Of a stretch of 32,000 bases of DNA, positions 3,186 to 26,479 are shown piece by piece. How positions within the stretch are numbered: position 1 is the stretch's first letter; each line of letters starts with the position of its first letter. The notes under the pieces are model-generated. The model worked only from the letters and a program-made list of their open reading frames with translations. It searched no databases and was not told the origin of the DNA. A program made the translations under genes and the position numbers. This DNA is from Ruminococcus albus 7 = DSM 20455 (GTDB lineage: Bacteria; Bacillota; Clostridia; Oscillospirales; Ruminococcaceae): positions 120,001 through 152,000 of the forward strand of contig NC_014824.1 in NCBI RefSeq assembly GCF_000179635.2, given 5' to 3'.

Positions 3186-5783
3186 TCACATTAATCCTAT
3201 TGTATTTTTAATAAAAAGAGGACTGAATGTTTTTTTCAGTTTTCCATCACTATCCTTTATAGAGTATGAAGTAGTTTTATTGTATCCAATAGGATCATAA
3301 TTACCACTTGATGCATCATCTCCAAACATTTTTTTAAAATCTACAACCGTCTTAATCGCAACATACGGCTTAAAGTAGTTACCGTTATTTGTGAAACTAT
3401 AACTGCGAGTTGTATAATCATATAATTTCGTTTTCTTATTTAATTTACCGAGTGTTAAGGAATACTTCCAAGAAGTTCTATCACAACTGTAACCAAATTC
3501 CCACTTGCCTTTATACTTAACCCAAGTATATTTCATGGTTGTATTTAAACATACATCTGATAAACGGAGAAAGTTTGCACTAGTAGTATATAAATCGTGA
3601 GGTGAAGGTGTATAGTTGAAAAGGGTCTTAATGGCAACACTGAGTGTTTTACCTGCTACAGGGTGACCAGCGCAAGAAAGCAATGCAGACACTCCAGTAC
3701 CAAATAAATTTTTCATTGCTGTATTTAATAATTTCTTTGCCCTTGTCGGATTGGTGCATTCTCCAATCAGATATATTCCGGGAGAGTAATTGCATCTCAG
3801 CTTTGGATTTTTAGTTGATACCTTATCACTTACACTTAATGAATAGTACTGATATGATTTTCCATTATATGTATATGTAGAAGAAGTACGTATTACATCA
3901 TACATTTTATCAATACCATTGCAAGGATGAAAGTCAGATTTAGCTTTTTTTATTACGTTTTTAGTGAAAATAGGATGTGTTTGTTTGTCAAATAATTCGG
4001 AGATTTCCTGATTACTTAATAATATATTTTTTTCTTCCAATGAATCTCTTAGATATTGATACTCATTTATTATATTGAGATTCTCTGGATCGTCCTTTAA
4101 TTCTTCAACCTTTTCATAATAATCTTCAATTAGTTTATCGGTATCTTGCTGATATGATTGCTCTAATTGATAAAAAGATGAAAAAACATCTGTGCTTTCT
4201 GATATAATTACATTTTCTCCATCTAATAAAATACCAGATGCGATTATGAATCCTTTAAAGTTGATCTCTTTGGAATTAATTTCAACATAACCATTTGGCG
4301 CAAAAATAATACCAGAGTAGTTGAATTCATCTGAATTAAAAGTTATATTTCCATTTTTTGAAGCAATAATTTGCGCATCGTCTTGTTGAGATATAATCGA
4401 TGAAGCATCAATCATGATCTGGTTATCAGAATATATGTTGCCATTAAGCTTAAAATCATTAGCACAGCAATTTACGTTTGAAAAATATCCATCTTCATCA
4501 ATGGTATATGAATCGGTGGTCATTTCCAATTTGTTGCTTTGGGTATTGTTATAATCAGAAAATAACGCATTTAACGAATCATAAATAAAATCATTATCGT
4601 TTTCTGTTTTATTTCCTATTTCTTTTCTTATATTTGATGAAATATAAATTTTATTGGCTGAAGAAATATTTCCACTACATTCAAAATAATTGGATTTTAT
4701 AGTTATATTATTATCTTTTCCAATAGAATTTAGTACAAATGGAGTTGCAACACTATTATCATCTATATCTAATGAATTATTAACATCTACCGTGACATTA
4801 GCATCTTTAGGGTCAATGACAATTGTATTGCTTTCAACTATCCTATCACCGTAATTACAAGCGATTTTAATATATTTTCTTTTATTAAAAGAATTAACTG
4901 CATATGAATAGGAGTTCCTGTCATAGACTTCATCCACTAAATTAAATATCTCATTATCTTCTGACTCCAGAATATCATAAACAGCATTTACATTAGATTC
5001 CCATTCAATATCTATGGATGAGTTTTTATAATCACATGCTGCAAATAATTCAATGGTTGGAGTAATATCTTCATTCATGCCATCACTTTCAGATTTACTA
5101 TTAACGAAGTCGATAAACTCATTATTAGTATTTATATTGACGGTAGAAGAATTAAAACAAATCTTTTGGGCGATTACAATTGTATTATTAAGATTTACAT
5201 TGTCAGAATTGAATATTACTGAGCCATTAGGAGCATATATTAATCCTGTAATGTTAGTGTTATTTGATGTGAAATTTATATCTCCATTTTTAGAGTATAG
5301 AACTATGTCATTATTAGTACTTGTATTTCCTTCAACCGTAATTTCATCTGTTGACATAATACTTTTATTTAGAAGTATATTTCCTTCTAATCTAATCTCA
5401 CCATCACATATGATAGGCGTGTTAACAGATATGTTTGTGTCAACCCAAGTATAATCTTCTGAATAATTATCAGATCCTTCATTGAAAAATCTGTCTGAGA
5501 TTTTATTGTTCAAATCTGGTATGTCTTTTTCAACGGATTCAAAAATATTATTAATAGTACAATTTGATATTACATCACCATTTGTACAAATACTTCCATT
5601 TAAATTAAATGTAGATGAAGAAATATTAACAGCGTCTTCTTCAAAACTTCCTGCAAATAACGCATAGGAATACATATTGTTACATGATGATTCAATTGCA
5701 ACTACAGGTATTAATCCTGATATATTAAACATTATAGCGGATGAAATAATACCGGCTGTAAATCTTTGAAACATTGTTTTCAT
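3186..5783 (-). CDS. Large secreted Asn-rich beta-helix-like protein (865 aa) with an internally duplicated N-terminal module and an unknown C-terminal domain
   Basis: Hydrophobic N-terminal segment (FTAGIISSAIMFNISGLIPVVAI). Two copies of a ~170-aa module (aa ~38-215 and ~366-525), ending GLIYAPNGSVIFNSDNVNLNNTIVIAQ and GIIFAPNGYVEINSKEINFKGFIIAS. The same module opens the protein at 13065-16250. The C-terminal ~260 aa are unrelated. RBS AGGGAG lies upstream of ATG 5783. Confidence 0.85.
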   Translation of the reverse strand: MKTMFQRFTAGIISSAIMFNISGLIPVVAIESSCNNMYSYALFAGSFEEDAVNISSSTFNLNGSICTNGDVISNCTINNIFESVEKDIPDLNNKISDRFFNEGSDNYSEDYTWVDTNISVNTPIICDGEIRLEGNILLNKSIMSTDEITVEGNTSTNNDIVLYSKNGDINFTSNNTNITGLIYAPNGSVIFNSDNVNLNNTIVIAQKICFNSSTVNINTNNEFIDFVNSKSESDGMNEDITPTIELFAACDYKNSSIDIEWESNVNAVYDILESEDNEIFNLVDEVYDRNSYSYAVNSFNKRKYIKIACNYGDRIVESNTIVIDPKDANVTVDVNNSLDIDDNSVATPFVLNSIGKDNNITIKSNYFECSGNISSANKIYISSNIRKEIGNKTENDNDFIYDSLNALFSDYNNTQSNKLEMTTDSYTIDEDGYFSNVNCCANDFKLNGNIYSDNQIMIDASSIISQQDDAQIIASKNGNITFNSDEFNYSGIIFAPNGYVEINSKEINFKGFIIASGILLDGENVIISESTDVFSSFYQLEQSYQQDTDKLIEDYYEKVEELKDDPENLNIINEYQYLRDSLEEKNILLSNQEISELFDKQTHPIFTKNVIKKAKSDFHPCNGIDKMYDVIRTSSTYTYNGKSYQYYSLSVSDKVSTKNPKLRCNYSPGIYLIGECTNPTRAKKLLNTAMKNLFGTGVSALLSCAGHPVAGKTLSVAIKTLFNYTPSPHDLYTTSANFLRLSDVCLNTTMKYTWVKYKGKWEFGYSCDRTSWKYSLTLGKLNKKTKLYDYTTRSYSFTNNGNYFKPYVAIKTVVDFKKMFGDDASSGNYDPIGYNKTTSYSIKDSDGKLKKTFSPLFIKNTIGLM

Positions 5784-7207: not shown

Positions 7208-8188
7208 GTGAAAGAAAGCTATAAGAACGATTGCCCTTATTATCTTGAGGATTTTTTGATAAATTTAAGTGTAATAAAAAATCGTGGTGATCTTACTTCA
7301 AGTGAATATTATCTTGATATAAGAACATTTTTAAGATACTTAAAGGTAAAGAATAAAATGGTTTCAGCTGAGACCAAGTTCAATGACATCACTATAAGCG
7401 ATGTTCCTATAGAAATGATAGAAAACTTTACTAAAAAAGATGCTTACCTTTATATGGTATGGCTCAAGGATGAAAGACAGAATGGAGCTTCCGCCAGAGC
7501 AAGAAAAACTACCTCACTGAAACAGTTCTATGATTACCTGGCTAATAAAGCCCAACTGATACCTAAGGATAATATGGTTTCTCTGGAAGTTCCGCACGTA
7601 AAAAGGGCCTTGCCTAAATACCTTTCACTTGACGAAGTCCAGAAGCTGCTTTCTTCCATCCGTACCAAAAACACTGAAAGAGATTATTGTATAATAACTC
7701 TGTTTTTGAATTGCGGAATGAGACTTTCTGAATTATGCGGTATAAATATAAATGATATAAGTTTTGAAAACAAGACTTTAAGGCTGATGGGTAAAGGAAA
7801 AAAAGAAAGAATAATAACCCTGAATAACAATTGTCTTGATGCTATTGAAAAATATCTTCCATACAGGAAAAATTACGAGATGGCACAAAATGAAAAAGCC
7901 TTGTTCTTGTCTTCCAGAAAGAACAGACTATCTAGACGGAGAGTTCAAAAGATAATTGAAGAATGCATAATGGATGCAGGCTTAAAAAATACGGGTGTAA
8001 CTACTCACAAGCTCAGACATACAGCTGCTACTCTGATGTATAATAATAATGGCGGAGATATTCTTGCTGTAAAAGAGATCCTTGGTCATGAAAGTACGGC
8101 AACAACAGAAATTTACACTCATCTCGGATCAGAAAAAATGAAAAATACTATGGATGTTATGGAAGATCTTCTAAAGAAAAAAGATTGA
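7208..8188 (+). CDS. Tyrosine site-specific recombinase/integrase, XerC/XerD-like
   Basis: 326 aa. N-terminal SAM-like core-binding region (LKQFYDYL). Catalytic signature GMRLSEL ... HKLRHTAATLMY ... LGHESTATTEIYTH (R...HxxR...H...Y). GTG start with SD AGAGGAG. Confidence 0.9.
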   Translation: MKESYKNDCPYYLEDFLINLSVIKNRGDLTSSEYYLDIRTFLRYLKVKNKMVSAETKFNDITISDVPIEMIENFTKKDAYLYMVWLKDERQNGASARARKTTSLKQFYDYLANKAQLIPKDNMVSLEVPHVKRALPKYLSLDEVQKLLSSIRTKNTERDYCIITLFLNCGMRLSELCGININDISFENKTLRLMGKGKKERIITLNNNCLDAIEKYLPYRKNYEMAQNEKALFLSSRKNRLSRRRVQKIIEECIMDAGLKNTGVTTHKLRHTAATLMYNNNGGDILAVKEILGHESTATTEIYTHLGSEKMKNTMDVMEDLLKKKD

Positions 8189-8282
8189 GCACTTCCCTGC
8201 TTTTATGGTTCAGTTCTGGTTTGTATCGGGCTTTTTTAGTCTATCCAGAATTTTAGTAAACCTTGAAGCAGTGTGTAATAAA

Positions 8283-8330
8283 AGAGACACTATACTCTTT
8301 TATTACACTGGTTTTCGTTTACACACAATT
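8283..8330 (+). terminator. Hairpin with 14-bp perfect stem downstream of the recombinase (terminator, or a recombinase-related inverted repeat)
   Basis: GTGTAATAAAAGAG (8283-8296) / CTCTTTTATTACAC (8306-8319), followed by TGGTTTTCGTTT. Confidence 0.5.
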
Positions 8331-8344
8331 CGGGAACCTATTTA

Positions 8345-8617
8345 TTGTTACACTTTAATGCTACTCAAATCTTTGTAGAACAATTGCGTTCGTATGGCTT
8401 GTATATTGATCGTGAAAAAGAAATGATTGCAAGTATAGAAAAGCTTATGAGTGATTTTTCCACTAATTTTGATAATAGATTTATCCCTAAGACACTATTA
8501 ATTAAGAGAAGTGGTGCTATTGCTTTACTGTGCGATGATGTCAAAAATCCTGATGAAGGAATTGCAATTTGTCTGTTCCCAGAAAAGTGTGTTATATCTC
8601 AAGATGATTATCTGTAA
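8345..8617 (+). CDS. Hypothetical protein (90 aa; TTG start in the ORF track, no clear SD)
   Basis: Only an open frame. No motif, weak start context. Confidence 0.25.
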   Translation: MLHFNATQIFVEQLRSYGLYIDREKEMIASIEKLMSDFSTNFDNRFIPKTLLIKRSGAIALLCDDVKNPDEGIAICLFPEKCVISQDDYL

Positions 8618-9124
8618 TAGTTATTGGTAGATGTAGATCTAAAGGAGTTTTTGTCGACCACCAAATCGTTTTTTAACAAATTTGCGACACATGACGTGTT
8701 TACGAACTTTACTCTGTAAATCCACAACAAGTTGCTGTGAATTTAGATACTGACGTCCAAGACTCACTCTCAAACCTCTCGTTTCAAGGGATTTGTTGTC
8801 AGTATGACATCAAATGCTGGCTTCCGAGACACGTTGAGTGCATAGTTCTGCTGTTAAGAGGGAAATCCTAAAATAGCGTATTTACGCGATTTATAGGCAT
8901 CACCCTTTTTCGATAATAGCAGTTTTACCCACTCAAAATTTGTATGAGGAAACAGGTAAAAGGGCAAAAACACGTACACGGCGCGTTTGACAATCAATCT
9001 GCACACTTTGATTTTTGACAACTATAGGAATAATTAGAATACTTATTATATATACTATAATCATCGAATTTTCATGATCAGAATCAAATAATAGCACAAA
9101 ATTTCCTAATTTTAAATTTTAATA

Positions 9125-9153
9125 TTGACTTTTGAAGACTTATGCGTTATAAT
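9125..9153 (+). promoter_or_regulatory. Near-consensus sigma-A promoter for the ATPase/TOPRIM pair
   Basis: TTGACT (9125-9130), 17-nt spacer, TATAAT (9148-9153). This places the ORF-track ATG at 9142 inside the promoter. Confidence 0.6.
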
Positions 9154-9174
9154 AGAACTGAAAGGAGTATTGTT

Positions 9175-10566
9175 ATGAAAAAGGAGAAAACTAGAATCAT
9201 AAGCATTTCCATTGAAAATATTAAAAATGTTTCTAAAGGCTCGGTGCTTTTAAATAATATAAAAGAGGATTCCATGGGTGCAAGTGTAATTGGCGTTTAC
9301 GGACAAAATGGTTCAGGTAAAACTGCACTTATATGGGCTATTGGTTTTATAAAGGATGCTATTTCTGGAGCCATTCTGCCTATGGACTCACATTATTATA
9401 TACGCCAAAAATCAGAACGAACACTTATTCAGGTGAAATTTGAAATAACAATACTTGAAAGAATATACGATGTATATTATGGCATTTCATTTGGCACAAC
9501 AAACGATAGAATTCAGATACTTTCTGAAAGCATCGACTATAGTGCTAAAGCAACTGAATCATTACCAAGAATAAACAAAACACGAATTATTGGTATTGAT
9601 TATCCAATGAACTCTACGGGTCTTGATGAATGCTTTTATATCCCCGATACTCGTATTGATGAAATGGCAAGAATAAATAAGCCTGTTCGTCAAAAGCTGC
9701 TTGTTCTTCAAGCGTTGGCAAACGAAAAAATGACATCTTTCATTTTTAATGACAAAATGATGGAACTTTTAAAGGCATCATTTACTAATGATATCTTCTT
9801 TAAAATATTAGATGAACTCCGCTTTTTTGCACGAATGAATCTTTTTGTGCTTAATAAAAACTCGGAATCATCATATAATATGAATCTTCTTCCGTTAAGT
9901 ATGCGATTGAGCACACAGAATACTATCTCAAAGTCAGATGCAATTCCAGTTGGGCTCGGTCAAAATAGTGCTTCGGCTGATGCCTTTAGAACCATTCAAA
10001 GTATAATTGCGCAAATTGATCTTTTAATCGGCAATATTGTGCCTGGTCTAAAAATTGACATAATCAATAAGACATCACAATTTAATGAAAGGGCAGAAGA
10101 AGAGCTGGTATTTGAATTAGCATCTAATCGCAATGGCATCATTACACCTTTAAGATATGAATCCGAAGGAATCAAGAAGATACTATGTATTTTGAGTTCA
10201 TTGATAGCAATGTACAATGATAGTTCAATATTTGTTGCCATCGATGAAATGGATGCAGGGATCTTTGAGTATCTGTTAGGTGAAATACTTGAAACAATCA
10301 AATCTACAGGAAAAGGACAGCTTTTATTCACATCCCATAATATGCGACCTTTGGAAGTGCTGGATAATTCAAGTATTTATTTCACAACGACTAATCCTAA
10401 TAATAAATATATTAAATTTACTGGAATCAAAAACAATAATAACCTGAGAACCACTTTATTGAGAACAATAGATTTAGGCGGACAAAAAGAATCAATTTAT
10501 GAAAATACAAGTACCTACCAAATTGGAAAGGCATTTAGGAAAGCAGGGGTGCTTGTAAGTGACTGA
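9175..10566 (+). CDS. ABC/SMC-like AAA ATPase (AAA_21/AAA_15-type, AbiL-i / RloA / AriA-like)
   Basis: Start moved to ATG 9175 (SD AAAGGAG 8 nt upstream). Walker A GQNGSGKT. A long inserted region between Walker A and an ABC-signature-like YESEGIKK. Walker B IFVAIDEMD. H-loop LLFTSHN. Confidence 0.85.
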   Translation: MKKEKTRIISISIENIKNVSKGSVLLNNIKEDSMGASVIGVYGQNGSGKTALIWAIGFIKDAISGAILPMDSHYYIRQKSERTLIQVKFEITILERIYDVYYGISFGTTNDRIQILSESIDYSAKATESLPRINKTRIIGIDYPMNSTGLDECFYIPDTRIDEMARINKPVRQKLLVLQALANEKMTSFIFNDKMMELLKASFTNDIFFKILDELRFFARMNLFVLNKNSESSYNMNLLPLSMRLSTQNTISKSDAIPVGLGQNSASADAFRTIQSIIAQIDLLIGNIVPGLKIDIINKTSQFNERAEEELVFELASNRNGIITPLRYESEGIKKILCILSSLIAMYNDSSIFVAIDEMDAGIFEYLLGEILETIKSTGKGQLLFTSHNMRPLEVLDNSSIYFTTTNPNNKYIKFTGIKNNNNLRTTLLRTIDLGGQKESIYENTSTYQIGKAFRKAGVLVSD

Positions 10567-11266
10567 GAGCAAAATTATTTTATTTATTGTTGAGGGAATG
10601 AGCGATGAAGTAGCACTTGCCCCTGCGCTTGAACAAATTATTACAAGCAATACAGTCAAATTCAAAGTAATGAGGTCAGATATTACCTGTGATTTTTCTT
10701 CTACAGTTAGCAATATTGAACGTAGGATTAAAAAATTAGGCGTAAAAAAGTTCCTTGATGAAAACGCTCAGTTTAACGAAAATGACATTTGCGCAGTAAT
10801 TCATATTGTCGATTTAGATGGGGCATTTGCACCAGATTCGATTGTTATTGAAGATAACACCATAGACAAAGCGCAATATCATGACGATTCCATTGTATGT
10901 AAGGATCGAAATCTTTTTTTACAAACAAAGAATAATAAGGAACTTATCCTGTTACATTTATGCACTTTAAAAGAGATAGCCATTCCTCATGGAATTAAAG
11001 TACCATATTCTATTTATTATATGTCATGTAATCTGGATCACGTTCTTCACGATAAGAGAAATTCAACAGTTGAAGAAAAGAAAAATAATAGTTTAGATTT
11101 TTCTGATAAATATGATGACCCACTATTATTTGAAAAGTTCTTTAATGAAGGAGACATTAAAATCAATGGAACATATGAGGAAACATGGAAATACGTTCAA
11201 CAAGGATTAAACTCTTTATTGAGAGGATCAAATTTCTGGATTTGTATTAATAATCATAAGAGTTAA
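10559..11266 (+). CDS. TOPRIM-type putative nuclease (RloB / DUF4435 / OLD-TOPRIM-like), partner of the ATPase
   Basis: GTG start overlaps the ATPase stop by 8 nt. KIILFIVEGMSDEV (TOPRIM Glu), IHIVDLDGAF (DxD), YMSCNLDHVLHD resembling the RloB S-N-x-x-F-E-x-W-L-L-H block. Confidence 0.7.
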   Translation: MTESKIILFIVEGMSDEVALAPALEQIITSNTVKFKVMRSDITCDFSSTVSNIERRIKKLGVKKFLDENAQFNENDICAVIHIVDLDGAFAPDSIVIEDNTIDKAQYHDDSIVCKDRNLFLQTKNNKELILLHLCTLKEIAIPHGIKVPYSIYYMSCNLDHVLHDKRNSTVEEKKNNSLDFSDKYDDPLLFEKFFNEGDIKINGTYEETWKYVQQGLNSLLRGSNFWICINNHKS

Positions 11267-11276
11267 TATGATTACT

Positions 11277-11306
11277 CCCGCACCACTGAATGACCAGTGA
11301 TGCGGG
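11277..11306. terminator. Hairpin between convergent genes (possible bidirectional terminator; no clear U-tract)
   Basis: CCCGCACCACTG (11277-11288) / CAGTGATGCGGG (11295-11306): 11 of 12 pairs, 6-nt loop. Confidence 0.4.
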
Positions 11307-11318
11307 GCTTGCTCTATC

Positions 11319-11537
11319 CTATTCATTTTCAACGACCATTCTTGCGCCCGACTTGAATTGGAATTCCAGATAAGTCTCGCCTATCTTTCCATTTACCACT
11401 ACCATCTTTATAGTGGTAATGCTGGCTACCTGCCAGAACATTGTTTGAAGTGTATGATTCCTTGGAGTTTTTTCTATATCTTTTTTTATTTCCCTAAAAT
11501 AATACTTTTCTCGCCTAAAAAGGCGGGATTTTTTCAT
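11319..11537 (-). CDS. Hypothetical small protein (72 aa)
   Basis: Open frame directly downstream of 11550-11771 on the same strand. No motif recognised. Confidence 0.4.
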   Translation of the reverse strand: MKKSRLFRREKYYFREIKKDIEKTPRNHTLQTMFWQVASITTIKMVVVNGKIGETYLEFQFKSGARMVVENE

Positions 11538-11549
11538 ATGAACAACCTT

Positions 11550-11771
11550 TTACTTACGAATATAAGCTATATCGATGCCAAAACACTGTGCTCCGACAAG
11601 CCATCCCGTAGATAATACCTCATATTCTAAAAGATCAGCAGGTACTCCATCTAATCTTCCGTGGTAATATTCCTCCACAAGACAATCACAATCATCATCC
11701 GGATTTCTTCCTTCAATTTTCACAATAGTGTCAGGCTCATTTTCTTTCACAAAATCGCTTATTTTAGCCAT
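11550..11771 (-). CDS. Hypothetical small acidic protein (73 aa)
   Basis: Open frame MAKISDFVKENEPDT... with AGGAAT-type SD context. No motif recognised. Confidence 0.45.
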   Translation of the reverse strand: MAKISDFVKENEPDTIVKIEGRNPDDDCDCLVEEYYHGRLDGVPADLLEYEVLSTGWLVGAQCFGIDIAYIRK

Positions 11772-11782
11772 ATAATCATTCC

Positions 11783-11925
11783 TTTATTTTAATATACTGT
11801 CTTTAATAAGTCTGAGGTTTTTGGTGTTCCAATCCCACGTGGGACCCTTTTTTTCGTTTTCTTCGATTTGAATATCAAGTTTCTGGATAACATCACAAAG
11901 AGAGGCAACTGATTTATATTCAGTT
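11783..11925 (-). pseudogene. C-terminal remnant of an unknown gene, truncated at the ~11925 junction
   Basis: Protein-like open frame without a start (...ATEYKSVASLCDVIQKLDIQIEENEKKGPTWDWNTKNLRLIKDSILK*). It ends 12 nt upstream of the 73-aa ORF and is closed by a stop just inside the GC-rich patch. Confidence 0.3.
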
Positions 11926-12298
11926 GCTGAATATCATCGACACTCTCACCGACAAGGGCGTTACCCTCGTCAGTCACAAGGAGAGCATTGATACCAACAC
12001 GCCTACGGGCAAATTCATGTTGACCGTGTTTGCTGCCCTCTCGCAGTTGGAGCGTGAACAGCTCAGACAGCGACAGCGTGAGGAAATCGAGATTGCTAAG
12101 GCACAGGGCAAGTATACGGGACGGAAACCTATCCCGACTGACTGGACGAGGTTCGGGCAGCTCTATGGGGAATGGAGAGCCAAGCGCATCACGTGGCGTG
12201 ACTTTATGCGTAAAATGGATATGTCGGCAAACACTTTTTACCGCCGTGTGCGTGAGTATGAAATTCGCAACGGCATCACCGAGCAGACCTCTGCTTGA
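11924..12298 (+). pseudogene. Serine recombinase (resolvase/invertase), 5-prime-truncated: catalytic N-terminus missing
   Basis: LNIIDTLTDKGVTLVSHKESIDTNTPTGKFMLTVFAALSQLEREQLRQRQREEIEIAKAQGKYTGRKP plus a C-terminal HTH (ANTFYRRVREYE) matches resolvase residues from ~aa 75 onward. There is no Ser-nucleophile segment. An abrupt AT-to-GC composition jump occurs at ~11925. Confidence 0.8.
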
Positions 12299-12516: not shown

Positions 12517-13068
12517 CTATGGTCTAAAAGCAGTAACGATAATCCATTTATTGTCATCATATTCTAAATATAACCTATTTGGCATCCCATCATACCCTAT
12601 ATCATAGTTGTAAGTTTCACCATTTTTTTTATAAGTTGCATGATATTCACATCCATAAAAAAATATAGCTTTATTCTTATGCCTTAGTACATCTGTTTCT
12701 TTAATAACAAATTGTTCATCTGTTATCTCATAATTATTTTCGGATAGAAAATCACGAGGATTTATATATGAAAAAGTATGGTCTGATATTATTCCTTGTA
12801 ATTCCTCTGTCAGTGTTCCATTGTAATTTAAAGAATCGTTAACTACTTTATTACCTAAATTTTCTATCTCATCTTTATCTTTAGAATGCAGAATAAATCT
12901 AAGATCCCAAACATTTAAGTATTCAGCATCTGTTTTACTTGGCTGATTATCATCGTAGTATTTATTGTTCCAGTATACCGTTCGAGTAAAAATAAATAGT
13001 ATTATGCCGAAAGATAAAGCTGCTATAATCATCACAGAGATTAGTATAACTCTTTTTCTCTTTGTCAT
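12517..13068 (-). CDS. Membrane-anchored protein (183 aa), translationally coupled to the giant amidase-domain protein; candidate immunity/cognate partner
   Basis: N-terminal TM helix VILISVMIIAALSFGIILFIF after a KRKR stretch. Its ATG overlaps the upstream stop as ATGA (13065-13068). Confidence 0.7.
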   Translation of the reverse strand: MTKRKRVILISVMIIAALSFGIILFIFTRTVYWNNKYYDDNQPSKTDAEYLNVWDLRFILHSKDKDEIENLGNKVVNDSLNYNGTLTEELQGIISDHTFSYINPRDFLSENNYEITDEQFVIKETDVLRHKNKAIFFYGCEYHATYKKNGETYNYDIGYDGMPNRLYLEYDDNKWIIVTAFRP

Positions 13069-16000
13069 AACGCATCACTCATTTGAACAATATAAACATA
13101 ATCGTAAAGATAATCATTTGGATCTTCGGTATCTTCATCAGGAGTCATTATCTTATCTGAAAGCGGTGTCATACTTGCAGGATTTGAATGACCTGCATAG
13201 TATATTTCGGAATCATCGATTTTACTAATAATGGTTGCGTGAGTAACCTCTTTTTTGGGCTTATGAACATTATGGAAATATAGTGTATCCCCAACCTTTA
13301 TTTCGAGATGATTTTGAACAAAATCTGATATTGAATCTCCACGATTAATTTTATAATATGCAATAGAATATGTTTCTTTAAAATATTTATATTGTGCTTC
13401 AGCATCAGTCCATTTTAGAGACCATTTTAATGATAAATCTTGGGCTCTATCTCCCCATACGGTAGTTATGTAATCAAATAGATTATTTTTCTTAACATAC
13501 CATAAACTATTCATCTGCATTCCACCTGCATAAACACATTGTGAAACAAAATTAGCACAATCAGAATCGATTCGCGGGTATTCTGAATTAAAAGTATTAT
13601 AATATTTCTGAGAGTATTCATATGCTGCATTTCTATCATAGATAGTATCAGAAAGATTTAATGGATATTTGTCTCTACCATCAAGTGCTCCATCATCATC
13701 TGTATCATCATCAAAAGCATTTGTGGCTGCAATCAATTCATGATAGTCATCTAATTCATCATCATCAGTATCCGGATCAGTTGGGTCACTTGTTGGTTTA
13801 AACTTAAAAATATTTATTGTTTCAAATTCCTCATCGAAAGTTTCGACCATTATCTTTTGAATGTACAAAGATTCATTTACTTCTTGACCGTCGGTCAAAT
13901 CATCTCCATCGGAATCTGGCTTATTGGGATTTGTAAAAACCAATTTTCCGTTTGGGAGTGGAATACCTGAAATATACTCTATATCATTAGGAAGACCATC
14001 ACCATCGCTGTCCTCCATCTCTCTAAAGTCAGTCATATTATTGTAAGCATAACTCTCGTATATTTTAGTAAGTCCCTCTGCTGTAGTTGCTGTAAGAGGT
14101 GTTCCACCTGTATCATTAGCGTATTGTTTTAACAGCTGGCTATTAGCCCCGGAACCAAGTGCAACTGTATGTATTCTTATTCCATTGTTTTTACAATATT
14201 TTATATTATCATCGGAAACATTTACATCTCCATCGGAAAGAAGGATAATATTTTTCTTTCCATAAACATGATTTAATTCATCAATAGCAATATCAATAGC
14301 ACTGTTAGCATTCGTTCCTCCTCTATTGTAGAAGGAAGCCTTACCGCTTAATGTACGCTTATTATTTGTCATTTCGCACTCCTCAGATGCTGATGATTCG
14401 AAAGTAATAATACTTGCGTTGTCAAAAACAAACATTGACTCAACATAATTCTGTACTGCTATGTTTCTATAACAAGTTAATACACCATTATCGTCTTTAA
14501 AGCTTTTGTCATTGGTTGACATACTTCCGGAGCAATCAACGCATATTGCAGTATATGAAGGAATTGCAGAAAAAATAGCGGCGTAGGAATTATAGATTTT
14601 TCTCCAGTTATTAAACCATTCTGTTTTATCTACAACCATATACTTACTAAAATGTTCCGTTTCAATGGAAACAATAGAGTTTTCACTATCATAGAAGGTA
14701 TCAAGTTCTACAAACTCTTTTTTCTTTTCATCATACCATAAAAACATCAGATTGTCAAACTCTGTATCGCCCAGCTTGCTCTGATCTATTTTAAAGCTCA
14801 AAGTAGCTTTTTTATATTCTGATGAAATTTTAATAGAGAAAGGTTCTCCAACAAGTCCCACAACATCTGTACACATTTTGTCTTTGTTCATGACACTTTT
14901 AATTTTTGCAGTCTTCTGAAGATTACCCGTACCCTCCATAGAAACGATAACTTCTGTTACAGCACAATCCTCGTTCTCTACCTTGTGGGTAAATGTCTGA
15001 GAACGTCTCTCTTCGCCGTCAAGTTCACCATCATCGTCAGTATCGGGATCGTTGGGGTCTGTACCGAAATATATCTCGTCATCATCATTCAGACCGTCCT
15101 TGTCGGTATCCATTTCGAGAGGATCAGTGTAATATTTATCACCCTCTTCGCCGTCTTTGAGGTTATCTCCGTCGGTATCATCAGCATAAGGTCTTGTGCC
15201 TATCTCATATTCACGACCGTTTGAAAGACCATCTTCATCGTAATCTTCATCGTAATCAGATACGCCATTATTGTCTGTATCGATTTTCAAAGGATCGGTT
15301 CCGAGAGAAAGTACTTCATATCCATCAGGCAGAAGATCTCCGTCAGTATCAGCCTCATAAGGCTTTGTACCTATTTCCTTTTCTATAATGTTTGGCAGAC
15401 CGTCTTTGTCTGTATCAGCAAGATACTTCCAATCAGCAAAAGTCCAGCTTAGTTCTTCGGTTTCAGTACCTACAAATTCTGCCCATGTGTTGCTGTAATT
15501 GATGTTAGCACCATAGCGGCTGCTAATAACAACATTCTGTGCGATTATGATACCGTTCAGATTAAAATTGTCACAGTCGATGGTAACTGTACCAAATGGC
15601 GCATAGATCAGACCGTTCATTGAAGCTTGGCTTTCATCGATCTTTATATCACCGAATTTGGAATAGATCACAGCATTGTTGCCGTTGAGATTTCCGCCGC
15701 TTAGAGTAACATCGGAAACCGCACCGATTGCGGTATTCAGAGCCATATTGCCATTATATGACATCTTGCCTGTAACATATACAGGCGAATTTAGGTTGAT
15801 GTTCATCTCTGACAGAGTGTAATCATTATCAAAGTTCCTGCCATTATTGAACCAGCCGGTCATCAGCTTGTTGTGGATATAGATCATATCCCTGCTGATA
15901 TCGAAAGCTTTAGCGCTGTCCTGTGCATCGGTGGCGTTTTCATCATCGGTGACTACCTCATCAACAGCAAGTGCTTCGTTCTCCAAAATAGTACCATTTA

Positions 16001-16250
16001 CATTCGGATACTTTGCAGTTGTCGAATAAACACCGTTTGTACAAGCATTGCCATTGACCGTCAGATAATTAAGGTCAAGCTTAATGCCACCTAGTTCATC
16101 CGCAGCAAATATCGCATACGGATATGCTTCCTGCTTACTTGCAGAGTCAGCACTTGCAGGTAAAACTGCTGACATACTTGTTGTTATCATAGCTAATGAT
16201 AACAGCCCGGAAACAATACGTTTCTGGTTTTTTGATCGTTTTTGATCCAT
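13065..16250 (-). CDS. Giant secreted multidomain protein: beta-helix-like module + TSP3-type Ca-binding repeats + vWA domain + TSP3 repeats + C-terminal Amidase_6/NlpC-P60-like putative amidase
   Basis: Start moved to ATG 16250 (SD GGAGGG 5 nt upstream).
Domains, numbered from the ORF-track M1:
- Signal peptide LLSLAMITTSMSAVLPASA.
- Module with GLIYAPFGTVTIDCDNFNLNGIIIAQ (aa ~55-265).
- Asp-rich repeats DTDKDGLPN / DTDGDLLPDG / GTDP...DTD (aa ~291-427 and ~758-872).
- vWA MIDAS VDCSGSMS, GGTNANSAI, IILLSDGD (aa ~578-745).
- C-terminal YDRNAAYEYSQKY...DCANFVSQCVYAGG...THATIIS...YAGHSN (aa ~883-1040). Confidence 0.88.
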   Translation of the reverse strand: MDQKRSKNQKRIVSGLLSLAMITTSMSAVLPASADSASKQEAYPYAIFAADELGGIKLDLNYLTVNGNACTNGVYSTTAKYPNVNGTILENEALAVDEVVTDDENATDAQDSAKAFDISRDMIYIHNKLMTGWFNNGRNFDNDYTLSEMNINLNSPVYVTGKMSYNGNMALNTAIGAVSDVTLSGGNLNGNNAVIYSKFGDIKIDESQASMNGLIYAPFGTVTIDCDNFNLNGIIIAQNVVISSRYGANINYSNTWAEFVGTETEELSWTFADWKYLADTDKDGLPNIIEKEIGTKPYEADTDGDLLPDGYEVLSLGTDPLKIDTDNNGVSDYDEDYDEDGLSNGREYEIGTRPYADDTDGDNLKDGEEGDKYYTDPLEMDTDKDGLNDDDEIYFGTDPNDPDTDDDGELDGEERRSQTFTHKVENEDCAVTEVIVSMEGTGNLQKTAKIKSVMNKDKMCTDVVGLVGEPFSIKISSEYKKATLSFKIDQSKLGDTEFDNLMFLWYDEKKKEFVELDTFYDSENSIVSIETEHFSKYMVVDKTEWFNNWRKIYNSYAAIFSAIPSYTAICVDCSGSMSTNDKSFKDDNGVLTCYRNIAVQNYVESMFVFDNASIITFESSASEECEMTNNKRTLSGKASFYNRGGTNANSAIDIAIDELNHVYGKKNIILLSDGDVNVSDDNIKYCKNNGIRIHTVALGSGANSQLLKQYANDTGGTPLTATTAEGLTKIYESYAYNNMTDFREMEDSDGDGLPNDIEYISGIPLPNGKLVFTNPNKPDSDGDDLTDGQEVNESLYIQKIMVETFDEEFETINIFKFKPTSDPTDPDTDDDELDDYHELIAATNAFDDDTDDDGALDGRDKYPLNLSDTIYDRNAAYEYSQKYYNTFNSEYPRIDSDCANFVSQCVYAGGMQMNSLWYVKKNNLFDYITTVWGDRAQDLSLKWSLKWTDAEAQYKYFKETYSIAYYKINRGDSISDFVQNHLEIKVGDTLYFHNVHKPKKEVTHATIISKIDDSEIYYAGHSNPASMTPLSDKIMTPDEDTEDPNDYLYDYVYIVQMSDAL

Positions 16251-16568
16251 TTTAACCCTCCTGAATAAATTTTCATGCCGAATTTGCATGGCGAATTACT
16301 TATAATTGATAACGCGCGAAAGTTAATATATCATGTTCATTATAGAATGTCAATAAATTAGTATACGATTTAGGATTATATACTTAATTATTGTTAATCA
16401 ACCAAATTACCACATTATAGAATAGACAATTAACTCGATACGCAAAAGCAGTCACACTTCACTTATGGTTAAAACTAATCGATTTCGGTGTTTTAGAAAA
16501 AAAGCCAAAATTGAATCAAAATATGATCAATCAACAACAGTGATAGACAAATTCAACTCCATAAGATG

Positions 16569-18998: not shown

Positions 18999-19601
18999 GT
19001 GAAAGGACCGATATTTTCCAAAGCAACGCTTGGTAGACTACCTGTATATCTGGATTATCTGAGGACAGGCGACCATGGCGAGAACATCTCTGCTGCTGAG
19101 ATATCAAGGGCATTAGGGCTTGGTGGTGTTCAAGTGAGAAAAGACCTTAACGCAGTCAGCGGTACAGGCAGACCAAAGGTAGGCTACAAGACCACTGAAC
19201 TTATCGCGGCACTTGAAGCTGTTCTCGGCAGAAAAGCAGCGACCCCTGTTGTTATTGTCGGTGCGGGAAAACTTGGCAAAGCACTGCTTGATTTCGAGGG
19301 GTTTGAAGAATACGGGATAAAGATCTCTGCGGCGTTTGATGTTGATAATAGCCTGCTGTGCGACAGGATACTCTCTATGGATACTTTTACCAACTACTGT
19401 CGGCTATATGATATCCATGCTGGAATAATCACAGTGCCTGCCGCCTGTGCGAAAGAAGTCTGCGGGATCATGATAAAGAGCGGGATAACTGCGATATGGA
19501 ATTTTGCACAGATCGAGCTGGATGTCACGGATAATATAACGGTTTGTCAGGAGAATCTGGCGCTTTCACTGGCACATCTTACCATGAAACTCAGGAAATG
19601 A
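18999..19601 (+). CDS. rex: Redox-sensing transcriptional repressor Rex
   Basis: 200 aa. ATLGRLPVYLDYL...ISAAEISRALGLGGVQVRKDLN (winged helix), plus the Rossmann motif VVIVGAGKLGKALL and ...IITVPAACAKEV...GITAIWNFA. Confidence 0.92.
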   Translation: MKGPIFSKATLGRLPVYLDYLRTGDHGENISAAEISRALGLGGVQVRKDLNAVSGTGRPKVGYKTTELIAALEAVLGRKAATPVVIVGAGKLGKALLDFEGFEEYGIKISAAFDVDNSLLCDRILSMDTFTNYCRLYDIHAGIITVPAACAKEVCGIMIKSGITAIWNFAQIELDVTDNITVCQENLALSLAHLTMKLRK

Positions 19602-19617
19602 TATGGAGGAAATTTCA

Positions 19618-22335
19618 ATGGCAAAGAAAGAATACGAGATCGTTGACGGTGTTGAAAAGCTGGAAGCCGCCCTTGAAAGAGTAAGGGCAGCACAGAGAAA
19701 AATGGCAACATTTACTCAGGAGCAGGTAGACAGGATATTCTTAGCTGCTGCCACCGCAGCAAACCGCGCAAGAATAGATCTTGCTGAGCAGGCTGTTGCA
19801 GAAACGGGTATGGGTATCGTTGAGGACAAGGTCATCAAGAATCACTATGCCAGCGAATACATATACAACAAGTACCGCGATACCAAGACCTGCGGTGTTC
19901 TTGAAGAGGATAAATCAGCAGGCATAAAGAAGATAGCAGAGCCTATCGGCGTTATCGGAGCGGTAATACCTACTACCAATCCTACTTCCACTGCGATATT
20001 CAAGTCTCTTATCGCACTGAAGACCAGAAACGGTATCATCATCAGCCCTCACCCACGTGCAAAGGAGAGCACCATAGCAGCAGCAAAGGTTGTACTTGAA
20101 GCAGCTGTCGAAGCGGGCGCTCCAGAGGATATCATTGCATGGATAGACATACCCAGTCTTGAAATGACAAATATGCTGATGAAAGAAGTAGATATCATAC
20201 TCGCTACCGGCGGTCCCGGAATGGTACACGCTGCATATTCCAGCGGTAAGCCTGCACTGGGCGTAGGTGCGGGAAATACTCCTGCTATCATTGATGAAAG
20301 TGCAGATATATTGCTTGCTGTAAACTCTATCATTCATTCCAAGACTTTCGATAACGGCATGATATGCGCTTCCGAGCAGAGCGTTATCGTACTTGACAGC
20401 ATATACGATGCAGTAAAGACAGAGTTCGCTGCAAGGGGCTGTTACTTCCTCAAACCCGATGAACTGAACAAGGTAAGAAAGACCATCATCATAAACGGTG
20501 CGCTCAATGCGAAGATAGTTGGACAGTCTGCCGCTAAGATAGCTGAACTTGCAGGCGTGACAGTTCCCGAGGGTTCAAAGATACTTATAGGTGAAGTTGA
20601 GAGCGTTGATATCTCCGAGGAGTTCGCCCATGAGAAACTCTCTCCGGTACTTGCTATGTATAAGGCTTCCGATATTCAGGATGCTTTCGGCAAAGCAGAA
20701 CATCTTATTGCTGACGGCGGATACGGACACACTGCTTCCATATATCTTGATGCGGTAAGGGAACAGGAAAAGCTTTCCGAGTTCGGTGAAAGAATGAAGA
20801 CCTGCCGAATTCTTGTGAATACACCATCTTCTCAGGGCGGTATCGGTGACCTTTATAACTTCAAACTTGCGCCATCACTTACCCTCGGCTGCGGTTCATG
20901 GGGTGGAAACTCGGTAAGTGAGAATGTAGGAGTAAAGCATCTGCTCAATATAAAAACAGTTGCCGAAAGGAGAGAGAATATGCTTTGGTTCAGAGCGCCC
21001 GAGAAGGTATATTTCAAGAAAGGCTGCCTGCCTGTTGCTCTTGATGAACTGAAAAATGTGATGGGCAAGAAGAAAGCATTCATCGTTACTGACAGTTTTC
21101 TCTTCAAGAACGGATTCACTAAGCCTGTAACAGATAAGCTTGACGAAATGGGTATAGTACACGAGACATTCTCCGATGTTGCTCCCGATCCGACACTTGC
21201 CTGTGCTGTGGAGGGCGTAAAGGCTATCAGAAGTTTTGAGCCTGATGTGATCATTGCTATCGGCGGCGGTTCTGCTATGGATGCTGCTAAGATAATGTGG
21301 GTAATGTATGAGCATCCCGAAGCTGACTTTATGGATATGGCGATGCGTTTTGTTGATATCAGAAAAAGAATATACACATTCCCGAAAATGGGTGAAAAGG
21401 CATATTTCATATGCGTTCCTACTTCTTCCGGTACAGGTTCTGAGGTAACACCTTTTGCTGTTATCACCGATGACAAGACAGGTCACAAGTATCCTCTTGC
21501 AGATTACGAACTTATGCCAAATATTGCAATAGTTGATACCGATATGATGATGAGTGCTCCAAAGGGACTTACTGCTGCATCCGGTCTGGACTGCATGGTA
21601 CACGACCTTGAAGCACTGGTATCAGTAATGGCTACACCGTTTACTGATGGTATCGCTCTCGAATCGCTGAAAATGACCTTTGATAATCTGCCCGAATGTG
21701 TTGAGAACGGTCAGACAGCTGTAAGGGCAAGAGAAAATATGGCTCATGCGGCTACTATGGCAGGTATGGCATTTGCTAATGCATTCCTGGGTATCGGTCA
21801 CTCACTGGCACATAAGCTGGGTGCATATCACCACCTGCCTCACGGTATATGCTGTGCGTTGGTGATTAGCGAAGTTATAAGATTCAATGCTTCTGATGTT
21901 CCTGTTAAGATGGGTACATTCCCACAGTACGAATATCCTCAGGCTGCCGCTAAGTATGCTAGGATAGCAAGATATCTCGGTGTACAGGGCAGCGGCGACA
22001 ATGAACTTGTCGAAGGTCTTATTGCAAAGATAGAAGAACTCAAAGAAGCTGTGGGCTGCAAGAAGACTATCGCTGAGTACGGTATCTCCGAGGAAGACTT
22101 CCTCGCTACTCTTGATAAGATGTCAAGAGATGCATTTGATGACCAGTGTACAGGTGCTAACCCCAGATATCCTCTCATCAGCGAGCTGAAGCAGATATAT
22201 ATGAACGTATACTACGGCAGAACTTTCACTGAGACTGAGAAGCCCGATGCTAGCCAGATAGACAGTTCTGAAAGCAGCAAGGATTTCAAGCAGGCATTCA
22301 ACCGTGCAGCAAGCAGCGGCAAAAAAAGAGTATAA
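19618..22335 (+). CDS. adhE: Bifunctional acetaldehyde-CoA / alcohol dehydrogenase AdhE
   Basis: Start moved to ATG 19618 (SD GGAGGA). N-terminal ALDH domain (catalytic-Cys context FDNGMICASEQS), C-terminal Fe-ADH domain (GGGSAMDAAK, HSLAHKLG). A ~35-aa Ser/Lys-rich C-terminal tail. Confidence 0.95.
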   Translation: MAKKEYEIVDGVEKLEAALERVRAAQRKMATFTQEQVDRIFLAAATAANRARIDLAEQAVAETGMGIVEDKVIKNHYASEYIYNKYRDTKTCGVLEEDKSAGIKKIAEPIGVIGAVIPTTNPTSTAIFKSLIALKTRNGIIISPHPRAKESTIAAAKVVLEAAVEAGAPEDIIAWIDIPSLEMTNMLMKEVDIILATGGPGMVHAAYSSGKPALGVGAGNTPAIIDESADILLAVNSIIHSKTFDNGMICASEQSVIVLDSIYDAVKTEFAARGCYFLKPDELNKVRKTIIINGALNAKIVGQSAAKIAELAGVTVPEGSKILIGEVESVDISEEFAHEKLSPVLAMYKASDIQDAFGKAEHLIADGGYGHTASIYLDAVREQEKLSEFGERMKTCRILVNTPSSQGGIGDLYNFKLAPSLTLGCGSWGGNSVSENVGVKHLLNIKTVAERRENMLWFRAPEKVYFKKGCLPVALDELKNVMGKKKAFIVTDSFLFKNGFTKPVTDKLDEMGIVHETFSDVAPDPTLACAVEGVKAIRSFEPDVIIAIGGGSAMDAAKIMWVMYEHPEADFMDMAMRFVDIRKRIYTFPKMGEKAYFICVPTSSGTGSEVTPFAVITDDKTGHKYPLADYELMPNIAIVDTDMMMSAPKGLTAASGLDCMVHDLEALVSVMATPFTDGIALESLKMTFDNLPECVENGQTAVRARENMAHAATMAGMAFANAFLGIGHSLAHKLGAYHHLPHGICCALVISEVIRFNASDVPVKMGTFPQYEYPQAAAKYARIARYLGVQGSGDNELVEGLIAKIEELKEAVGCKKTIAEYGISEEDFLATLDKMSRDAFDDQCTGANPRYPLISELKQIYMNVYYGRTFTETEKPDASQIDSSESSKDFKQAFNRAASSGKKRV

Positions 22336-22350
22336 ACGGAGGAACGGTAT

Positions 22351-23100
22351 ATGAATCTGGATCGTGTAATAGCTGTCAGAAATACCAAGACGGTGTATCG
22401 TGACGGTGATAAGTGTATAAAAGTATTCAATGATACTTACAAGAAGTCTGAAGTGCTCAACGAGGCATTGAATCAATCCATGGTTGAAGAAACAGGCATA
22501 AATATGCCACGCCTGAAAGAGGTTCTTATGATAGATGGCAAATGGTCTATCGTTTCTGAATATATAAACGGTAAGACCCTTGCACAGATGATGGAAGAAG
22601 AACCTGAAAAGAAGAGAGAGTACATCGAAAAGCTGGTAGATATCCAGCTTGATATACACTCCAGAACCTGTCCCATGCTGAGAAAGCTGAAAGACAAGAT
22701 GAACAGTAAGATAAGTCAGACTGACCTCAATGCAACAACAAGATATGATCTTCATACACGCCTTGAAGGTATGCCCAAGCACTATAAGCTCTGCCACGGT
22801 GACTTCAATCCCTCAAATGTAATAATTACTGAGGATGGAACTCCCTATATCATCGACTGGGCACACGCTACACAGGGCAATGCTTCTGCTGATGCAGCAA
22901 GAACGTATCTCTGCTTCTGGCTGGACGGAGATATTGAGGGCGCAGATATGTATCTCGACATATTCTGCGAGAAGAGCAATACCGCCAAGCAATACGTTCA
23001 GAAGTGGATGCCTATCGTTGCGGCTTCGCAGTCGGTGAAGGGCAATGCTAAAGAGCGTGAGTTCCTGCTTTCTTGGGTAGATGTTGTAGATTATATGTAA
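22351..23100 (+). CDS. Small APH/choline-kinase-fold protein kinase-like protein
   Basis: 249 aa. Brenner-type motif LCHGDFNPSNVII and the downstream IIDWAHATQGNASADAARTY, typical of the aminoglycoside-phosphotransferase/kinase-like fold. Confidence 0.8.
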   Translation: MNLDRVIAVRNTKTVYRDGDKCIKVFNDTYKKSEVLNEALNQSMVEETGINMPRLKEVLMIDGKWSIVSEYINGKTLAQMMEEEPEKKREYIEKLVDIQLDIHSRTCPMLRKLKDKMNSKISQTDLNATTRYDLHTRLEGMPKHYKLCHGDFNPSNVIITEDGTPYIIDWAHATQGNASADAARTYLCFWLDGDIEGADMYLDIFCEKSNTAKQYVQKWMPIVAASQSVKGNAKEREFLLSWVDVVDYM

Positions 23101-23117
23101 TATGTGAGGTGCTAGAT

Positions 23118-23357
23118 ATGAAGGTAACTGTATGTATTGGTTCTTCCTGCCATCTGAAAGGCTCGCGTCAGGTTGTCGAGCAGCTTCAGTATCTTATCGC
23201 AGAAGAAAAATTAGGTGACAAGATAAAGCTTGGCGGAACATTCTGCATGGGCAAATGTCAGCAGGGTGTATGTGTAACTGTTGATGATGTGTTCTACTCG
23301 GTAACTCCCGAAACGGTCGGAGAGTTCTTCGAGAAAGAGATCAAGCAGAAGGTATAG
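23118..23357 (+). CDS. Thioredoxin-like [2Fe-2S] ferredoxin (NuoE/HndA-type small protein), copy 1
   Basis: Start moved to ATG 23118 (SD GAGGTG). Cys pattern CIGSSCHLKG ... FCMGKCQQG (C-x4-C ... C-x3-C). Confidence 0.8.
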   Translation: MKVTVCIGSSCHLKGSRQVVEQLQYLIAEEKLGDKIKLGGTFCMGKCQQGVCVTVDDVFYSVTPETVGEFFEKEIKQKV

Positions 23358-23362
23358 TAACC

Positions 23363-23614: not shown

Positions 23615-23615
23615 G

Positions 23616-26463: not shown

Positions 26464-26479
26464 GGGTGTGAACAGATAA

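Follow-up and report, generated by a model that had tools for sequence, protein, structure and literature searches.

A conserved ABC ATPase gene pair of Ruminococcus albus 7 with an unannotated, putatively TOPRIM-type partner: a candidate anti-phage module carried by mobile elements

Introduction

Few forms of bacterial immunity are as common as modules that combine an ATP-binding cassette (ABC) ATPase with a nuclease, and the effectors of such modules have been catalogued as OLD TOPRIM, DUF4435, RloB, DUF4276, HNH and PIN proteins. Pairs in which an ABC ATPase is joined by a TOPRIM protein are established defence modules (PMC11464382; PMC13064643; bioRxiv 10.1101/2024.01.29.577857), and PARIS, Septu and Old serve here as the analogues for an ATPase that would hold its nuclease inactive (PMC11464382; PMC13064643; bioRxiv 10.64898/2026.07.10.737580). 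TOPRIM_OLD toxins that are neutralized by AAA proteins have also been validated as toxin–antitoxin pairs in NetFlax (PMC10440598). Here we describe a gene pair in a stretch of 32,000 nucleotides of Ruminococcus albus 7 (NC_014824.1, positions 120,001 to 152,000; this whole stretch is called the window, and all positions refer to it). Gene A encodes an ATPase of 463 residues and gene B, which overlaps its end, a protein of 235 residues. An earlier note on this DNA had read the pair as an ABC-type ATPase with a TOPRIM protein that has a block reminiscent of RloB, and as a defence system that might be a divergent lineage.

We propose, with a probability of roughly 60%, that the pair is an abortive-infection or anti-phage module borne by mobile elements and akin to PARIS and AbiL, in which an ABC ATPase would serve as sensor and a TOPRIM-type nuclease as effector. 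That an ABC ATPase should be found together with a TOPRIM-type effector on mobile elements is well known and will not surprise a specialist. What is new is the effector family, which is large, phylogenetically broad and unannotated, and which has an invariant C-terminal module of its own.

Comparison with described systems

AbiL of Lactococcus lactis resembles the R. albus pair in being a two-gene operon with the ATPase gene first; AbiLi has about 453 residues (PMC13064643), compared with 463 for gene A. The AbiLi model of PADLOC is the best defence model for gene A and for all 34 relatives tested, a likeness to the model and not to the original lactococcal protein. When gene A was compared by tblastn with 72,556 plasmids, no lactococcal match was found. 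The partners differ: AbiLii is a predicted OLD-type TOPRIM effector (RloB), whereas gene B of the window and ten relatives listed individually match neither the PADLOC AbiLii models nor Pfam RloB (PF13707).

PARIS likewise has its ABC ATPase split from a small TOPRIM-type effector, is carried on prophages and satellites, and plausibly shares with our pair the logic of an ATPase that holds a nuclease until it is triggered (PMC11464382). However, AriB is a DUF4435 (PF14491) tRNase and gene B has no DUF4435 match; AriB appears only weakly among the structural matches of gene B (E about 0.1, TM-score about 0.2), and AriA is absent from the best 50 Foldseek neighbours of gene A.

HEC-01 and MADS combine an AAA_21 ABC ATPase with a DUF4276 TOPRIM-like partner (Mad4 or HEC-01B), and gene A matches both mad3 and HEC-01A. 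The gene B family recurrently but weakly matches mad4, HEC-01B, PDC-M12B and PDC-M38B; the PADLOC candidates PDC-M12, PDC-M31 and PDC-M38 are grouped here with HEC-01 and MADS. All of these matches lie far under the family thresholds, however, and the likeness ends after the DxD motif: the second half of DUF4276 reads ACRELExFYLAD, that of gene B YYMSCNLDHVLH. As regards MADS, there are no other mad genes nearby and no methyltransferase among the annotated neighbours (a tyrosine recombinase, recombinase remnants and secreted proteins).

PtuA of Septu and of the retron PtuAB systems is among the closest folds to gene A (E about 1e-11), and there too an ATPase oligomer holds a small nuclease. 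PtuB, however, is an HNH nuclease and not a TOPRIM protein, and the PADLOC PtuA matches to gene A are weak and confined to its N-terminal part. The OLD family (P2 Old, Gabija GajA) unites ABC ATPase and TOPRIM domains, and six of 28 gene B relatives weakly match OLD-like_TOPRIM at the Glu motif. Yet OLD classes 1–3 are fused ATPase–TOPRIM proteins, whereas A and B are separate genes in 83 of 83 loci, with no fusion seen; class 4 is PARIS, split with a DUF4435 partner, which gene B is not. Matches to GajA are weak and occur in only a few members of the gene A family (3 and 2 of 34, best 4.5e-7).

Linkage of the two genes

The two genes and their overlap lie as follows.

9175–10566, plus strand: gene A, ABC/SMC-type ATPase (AAA_21), 463 residues
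10559–11266, plus strand: gene B, 235 residues, unannotated family; start codon GTG at 10559
10559–10566, plus strand: A/B overlap of 8 nucleotides; GTG 10559 of B against TGA 10564–10566 of A

A scan of one genome per GTDB species gave 79 loci of gene B, from Lachnospiraceae, Oscillospiraceae, Erysipelotrichaceae, Veillonella, Collinsella, Sphaerochaeta and other Spirochaetia, Bacteroides and Hallella, Cetobacterium, and Izemoplasmatales and Anaeroplasmataceae. When other retrieved contigs that already held both genes were added, the set grew to 83 loci, and in all 83 a homologue of gene A (28–98% identity) lay directly upstream on the same strand. The stop codon of A and the start codon of B overlapped in about 80% of these loci; the overlap was 11 nucleotides in 41 and 8 nucleotides in 17, and in the rest mostly a few nucleotides either way. 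The reverse test gave a similar picture, with gene B downstream in 70 of the 73 metagenomic ATPase loci that had sufficient downstream DNA. The 8-nucleotide overlap of stop and start implies that translation of B is coupled to that of A. In at least six bacterial lineages, A and B make up a near-obligate operon with coupled translation, and the pair co-occurs in other genomes, a point on which the earlier note had made its reading depend.

Members of the gene A family that stand without gene B have 30–37% identity and include one on a megaplasmid of E. eligens (L006), one on a Paenibacillus plasmid (L007) and three further loci (L118, L173 and L181). Their downstream neighbours are unrelated to gene B and include a methyltransferase-like gene and, elsewhere, a gene encoding a protein of 517 residues. 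No remnant of gene B was found downstream of the ATPases in L006–L008. Either these systems have decayed, or their ATPases work with other partners.

Gene A is an ABC/SMC-type ATPase

Gene A contains a Walker A motif (GQNGSGKT, 43–50), a signature-like motif (YESEGIKK, 328–335), a Walker B motif (IFVAIDEMD, 351–359) and an H-loop (FTSHN, 385–389), with a large beta/helical insert separating the Walker A lobe from the signature motif. Across 34 homologues, G43–K49, Y328, E329, S330, G332, K335, D357, E358, D360 and T386–N389 are invariant. The protein matches Pfam AAA_21 (PF13304) with E 8.5e-15 and 56 bits, against a gathering cut-off of 27 bits.

Among PADLOC models, AbiLi (PDLC02335) scored best at 1.9e-29, followed by a model labelled AriA and then by mad3 and HEC-01A. 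The AriA model PDLC02980 is probably generic, because it and Pfam AAA_21 match the same residues of gene A with the same profile positions. Another AriA model, PDLC02979, finds 20 of the 34 relatives at up to 3.8e-17. Within the family, mad3 matches 34 of 34 members (best 6e-15) and HEC-01A 33 of 34.

The AlphaFold2 model of gene A has a mean predicted local distance difference test score (pLDDT) of 78.5, with low-confidence loops at 229–256 and 417–443. Its closest Foldseek neighbours are Rad50 (2e-12) and PtuA of Septu and of retrons Ec78 and Ec83 (7e-12 and weaker). Searches of the PDB with the single sequence and with a 34-sequence profile returned only generic ABC, Rad50 and RecF heads, and no solved defence ATPase. 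These results establish gene A as an ABC/SMC-type ATPase, as the motifs had first suggested.

One relative of gene A, P0323, is unusually long at 652 residues (33% identity, 89% coverage). We considered it as an A–B fusion, or ‘Rosetta stone’, and ruled this out as it contains no B-like part. BLASTP places the peptide NENILVAV of this protein twice, 137 residues apart, a hint of an internal duplication.

Gene B founds a family of its own

The product of gene B is identical to R. albus WP_013483399.1 (ADU23849.1, UniProt E6UJK3), a hypothetical, ‘uncharacterized protein’. A word-indexed search retrieved 382 homologues, none with a Pfam domain; the few that are named are called ‘hypothetical’, and RefSeq annotations of plasmid-borne relatives place a ‘hypothetical protein’ beside an ‘AAA family ATPase’. 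An exhaustive search, which returned the strong members and not the fringe of the family, found 1,902 cluster representatives (50% identity) at E<=1e-3, 737 of them at <=1e-30. The family ranges over Bacillota, Actinomycetota, Spirochaetota, Bacteroidota, Fusobacteriota and Mollicutes.

Three motifs stand out in gene B: IVEGMSDE, VDLDG and SCNLDHVLH. Residues E12, D41, D85, D87 and C157–V162 are invariant in 28 homologues; in a larger alignment of 145, G13, D41, D85, D87, K174 and N225 are invariant and E12 is nearly so (at least 90%). A family-specific module comprises YYMSCNLDHVLH (150–165), N168, K174, W210, S219, R222 and N225. Over half of the invariant residues, including SCNLDH, N168, K174, W210, S219 and N225, fall outside the TOPRIM-like core.

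Gene B itself matches no TOPRIM-type family among the Pfam, NCBIfam, PADLOC and PHROG models even at E<=1, and in PADLOC it has no match of any kind at that level. RloB and DUF4435 do not match the window protein or any of the ten members listed individually. Both are also absent among 25 of the 26 Pfam families that 28 members match at E<=1, and RloB and AbiLii are absent among the 25 families listed for each of the 28- and 145-member scans. The resemblance to RloB that had been seen in SCNLDHVLH was therefore not borne out. Judged by sequence, gene B is the founder of a separate family, with about 1,900 clusters at 50% identity, that is neither RloB nor DUF4435 nor DUF4276; it belongs to no named TOPRIM partner family, and its second half forms a distinct module. 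The suspicion of a divergent lineage was right.

Gene B very probably has a TOPRIM-type core

The AlphaFold2 model of gene B is confident (pLDDT 89, predicted template modelling score 0.88). Its N-terminal part runs, in order, through a strand (6–11), E12, a helix (14–27), a strand (32–37), a helix (53–68), a strand (77–84) and D85xD87. E12 thus follows strand 1 and the DxD follows strand 3, which is the fold-level signature of TOPRIM, and D41 stands after strand 2 of the predicted core. Beyond the DxD come a hairpin, a long helix and strands at 139–155, and then a helical C-terminal part that starts with the invariant SCNLDH.

Profile searches with family members point in the same direction, at scores below threshold throughout. 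When 28 members were compared with Pfam, the recurrent matches were DUF4276 (seven members, best 0.0025), Toprim (six) and OLD-like_TOPRIM (six); the only other family to match more than two members was PsbR (4 of 28), which we attribute to chance. The Toprim matches span residues 7–86 and the DUF4276 matches residues 11–120, approximately, so that the profiles run from their start to the DxD or slightly beyond, and the OLD-like_TOPRIM matches cover the Glu region only (about residues 8–39). DUF4276 (PF14103) scored 13.7–14.9 bits in the members listed individually, with no match in the window protein.

Comparison of 145 members with PADLOC gave recurrent matches to mad4 (17 members), to several HEC-01B models (12, 10, 9, 7 and so on) and to PDC-M38B (11), whereas unrelated models appeared as singletons; PDC-M31B and PDC-M12B (best 3.9e-5) recurred as well. 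All of these recurring models describe the ‘B’ partners of AAA_21 ATPases.

We also aligned the gene B family by hhalign with a DUF4276 family built from the HEC-01B sequence in the supplement of bioRxiv 10.1101/2024.01.29.577857. The alignment (P=0.007, 69 columns) brings the Glu and the DxD into register, pairing IVEG of gene B with LLEE of DUF4276 and VDTDG with RDQDS. In local and low-mact modes about the first 70 residues align, in no mode does the alignment pass the DxD, and global mode fails. The weak Foldseek matches of the gene B model, at E about 0.1, include AriB, topoisomerase II and an RloB-like phage protein. PDB profile matches of the family to a CBS-type transporter, chorismate mutase and integrin I-domains were dismissed as chance.

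From the placement of the motifs in the predicted fold, and from the recurrent, in-register sub-threshold matches, we conclude that gene B very probably has a TOPRIM-type catalytic core.

Architecture of the cassette

The remaining features of the cassette are these.

9125–9153, plus strand: predicted sigma-70-type promoter; TTGACT 9125–9130, spacer of 17 nucleotides, TATAAT 9148–9153
9162–9167, plus strand: ribosome-binding site AAGGAG, 7 nucleotides ahead of the ATG of gene A at 9175 (read from the sequence)
10545–10549, plus strand: possible ribosome-binding site AGGGG of gene B (read from the sequence)
11276–11307, no strand assigned: GC-rich hairpin, 10 nucleotides past the stop codon of gene B; folding energy −19.6 kcal/mol, z −3.45
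8829–11410, plus strand: conserved cassette of 2.6 kb with leader, promoter, genes A and B and hairpin, delimited by blastn against the loci of relatives

The predicted promoter matches the consensus at 11 of 12 positions and is the top promoter-like site within 8200–12000; as a class, such sites are not enriched there (25 found, 18.1 ± 4.7 expected). Gene A is taken to start at ATG 9175, because the longer open reading frame (from 9142) would begin within the −10 box and the alignment with homologues starts at the Met at 9175. The hairpin belongs to the conserved cassette and separates gene B from what remains of a convergent recombinase gene. A U tract is absent from both strands, and the hairpin was not called as an intrinsic terminator. 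GC content is about 0.33 around the pair and about 0.45 in the backbone, and a tyrosine recombinase gene lies at 7208–8188.

In all of these respects (the promoter, the motifs of both proteins, which are invariant or nearly so in homologues, the 8-nucleotide overlap, the AT-rich island beside a tyrosine recombinase and the flanking hairpin) the anatomy given in the earlier note was confirmed.

Genomic context and mobility

Blastn of the window against four related loci (L001–L004) gave 96% identity over 9023–11410 and 89% over 8829–9022, with no similarity outside. Between the blocks that match 8829–9022 and 9023–11410, these loci have about 162 extra bases, an insertion or deletion about 100 nucleotides upstream of the promoter. 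In the closest relatives, whose pair is 98% identical, the cassette abuts a serine recombinase of 422 residues at one end of a prophage with tape measure, portal and TerL genes. There it stands beside GmrSD and either a PvuII-type restriction–modification pair or a CBASS operon.

The homology with the relatives’ cassette reaches 88 bp into the 3′ end of the gene for their 422-residue serine recombinase and breaks off there, and because of this a short open reading frame beyond gene B looks like a recombinase remnant. A second one appears N-terminally truncated, since its match to Pfam Resolvase spans model positions 82–145 only.

11319–11537, minus strand: open reading frame of 72 residues, likely recombinase remnant
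11924–12298, plus strand: truncated resolvase open reading frame; Pfam Resolvase model positions 82–145 only

The pair thus lies between a tyrosine recombinase and what looks like recombinase debris. Searches of the window for a tRNA or Rfam element, as an attachment site or third component, and for direct or inverted repeats delimiting the cassette found none.

In other members of the family, the next gene downstream encodes a large serine recombinase, on elements that also have a Mob_Pre relaxase, or the pair closes a phage-like block of small early genes, Tad4 among them. Seven loci are on IMG/VR viral contigs, and one further member is on a Clostridioides phage-plasmid. The pair is thus cargo of prophages and mobilizable elements; hosts share the 2.6-kb cassette and nothing around it, and in the closest relatives it lies in a defence island.

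In one locus (L092), the gene for Tad4 (anti-Thoeris, 1990–2250) lies about 4.4 kb upstream of the A–B pair, which places an anti-defence gene and a candidate defence gene on one element.

A model for the function of the pair

Based on these results, we propose a model in which A and B would be transcribed from the predicted promoter at 9125–9153 and B translated by coupling to A, as read from the sequence. To judge from its homology and fold, A would act as a Rad50/SMC-like ABC ATPase that probably dimerizes or oligomerizes through its heads and insert. B may be a small metal-dependent nuclease, with the acidic cluster of E12, D41 and D85xD87 at the TOPRIM catalytic positions, and its second half, including SCNLDH, may confer substrate specificity or contact A. 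By analogy with AriA/AriB of PARIS, PtuA/PtuB of Septu and P2 Old, we hypothesize that A holds B inactive until a phage product or phage-induced damage is sensed. Once released or activated, B would, by the same analogy, cut tRNA or DNA, so that the infected cell stops.

We infer the defence function from context and analogy. Linkage of the two genes, their carriage as mobile cargo and the best scores of the ATPase against defence models all favour the reading of the pair as a defence module. Of the earlier note’s interpretation, the ABC ATPase, the linked pair and the divergent lineage were supported; the TOPRIM signals of the effector stayed below threshold.

Several observations weigh against this model. 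There is no statistically significant match of gene B to TOPRIM in sequence or structure. Foldseek of the gene B model against PDB and BFVD returned nothing at E<=1e-3, and its weak matches mix TOPRIM proteins with PurE, PTS EIIA, epimerases and TubZ. Profile searches of the PDB with the 28- and 145-sequence alignments found no TOPRIM protein at E<=10, the best Pfam E-value of the family is the 0.0025 of DUF4276 (about 15 bits against a cut-off of 30.2), and the hhalign probability for DUF4276 is just 5.5%. The earlier note had staked its reading on a significant TOPRIM, RloB or DUF4435 match or fold for 10559–11266; none was found, which taken strictly goes against it, and for this reason we rate its interpretation as only partly supported. 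In addition, solo ATPases followed by unrelated genes occur in 3 of the 73 metagenomic loci and in two plasmid copies. A clear defence-island context is seen in the closest relatives only, and no other recognizable defence gene adjoins the pair in the window. Last, among weakly related systems we found published phage challenge data for HEC-01 (ABC ATPase plus DUF4276) only, and in that screen it did not protect (bioRxiv 10.1101/2024.01.29.577857).

Alternative explanations

The closest rival to a defence module is a toxin–antitoxin-like addiction module, in which B would be a toxic nuclease and the ATPase A its antitoxin, and the pair would stabilize a prophage, mobilizable element or megaplasmid instead of defending against phages. 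The pair is always on mobile elements beside recombinases, and its gene order and overlap are like those of toxin–antitoxin operons. Pairs of an AAA ATPase and TOPRIM_OLD acted as toxin–antitoxin systems in NetFlax (PMC10440598), and PARIS has been described as toxin–antitoxin-like (PMC13064643). However, those pairs of this kind that have been tested also defend against phages, the closest relatives of our pair lie among GmrSD, restriction–modification and CBASS genes, and the AbiL ATPase of F. nucleatum failed to neutralize its toxic AbiLii (PMC3985639). We regard addiction as rather unlikely to be what the pair was selected for. It overlaps our model in mechanism and differs in the selected function, and the two are not mutually exclusive.

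The scores of gene B bear on a further possibility, that B is no nuclease and has a Rossmann-like three-layer fold that mimics the TOPRIM motifs, for example as an adaptor that binds nucleotides or metal or as a new enzyme, which A would regulate or use in another way. A confident model without a significant structural neighbour, TOPRIM signals that are all sub-threshold, and the position of more than half of the invariant residues outside the TOPRIM core would fit such a protein. Nevertheless, an invariant Glu right after strand 1 and a DxD right after strand 3 are the TOPRIM signature, and the recurrent weak matches, bar the chance matches to PsbR, point to TOPRIM-type families whose proteins also pair with AAA_21 ATPases. 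A non-nuclease B is less likely still, and we consider it improbable. The pairing also recalls RecF and RecR, a known combination of an ABC ATPase with a TOPRIM protein, and A and B could be a Rad50/RecF-like ATPase and a RecR-like partner that process DNA ends during integration, excision or replication. Rad50 is among the closest folds of A, the A family profile weakly matches Rad50 and RecF, and the pair adjoins serine recombinases. Yet a Mre11/SbcD-like or RecO partner is absent, A has only a short helical insert in its model and no long coiled coil, the flanking genes differ by host while the pair alone is conserved, and A scores best against defence-system models. A role in recombination or repair is therefore the least likely of these explanations, and we give it very little credence.

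Significance

As gene B falls outside DUF4435/AriB, RloB/AbiLii and DUF4276/Mad4/HEC-01B, the pair would represent a new lineage of ABC ATPase plus TOPRIM systems. Since none of Pfam, NCBIfam, PHROGs and PADLOC v2 detects the effector, the pair would be overlooked in surveys of gut and rumen defensomes that use these libraries. If our model is correct, the pair brings the OLD/PARIS/AbiL group a new lineage of effectors, offers a compact cassette of 2.1 kb for testing in Firmicutes, and provides a natural comparison of how related ATPases hold and release different TOPRIM-like effectors. Even so, the general picture of such systems would be unchanged. More speculatively, gene B may have a new effector fold or activity, with a TOPRIM-derived or TOPRIM-mimicking metal site joined to the unrecognized module of SCNLDH, K174, W210 and N225; the pair would then be a mechanistically distinct defence system, widespread in gut Firmicutes and missed by current tools. 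We think this doubtful.

Other genes in the window

At the GC-rich edge of the AT-rich island, an IS66-family unit on the plus strand comprises TnpB_IS66 (131–487, 1.4e-40) and a DDE_Tnp_IS66 transposase (580–2091, 3.6e-89). Two very large AT-rich genes, both on the minus strand and both with signal-peptide-like N-termini, flank the recombinase and defence patch. One, at 3186–5783, encodes 865 residues with DUF7305; the other, at 13065–16289, encodes 1074 residues with numerous acidic repeats of the DxDxDG type, a VWA domain and, at the C-terminus, an Amidase_6 domain. The backbone at 18999–27916 (plus strand) is metabolic. It encodes a Rex-like repressor (CoA_binding and Put_DNA-bind_N), an AdhE-type aldehyde/alcohol dehydrogenase, a kinase-like protein, two Fe-only hydrogenase-like proteins, one of them with a PAS domain, and a SpoIIE-type phosphatase.

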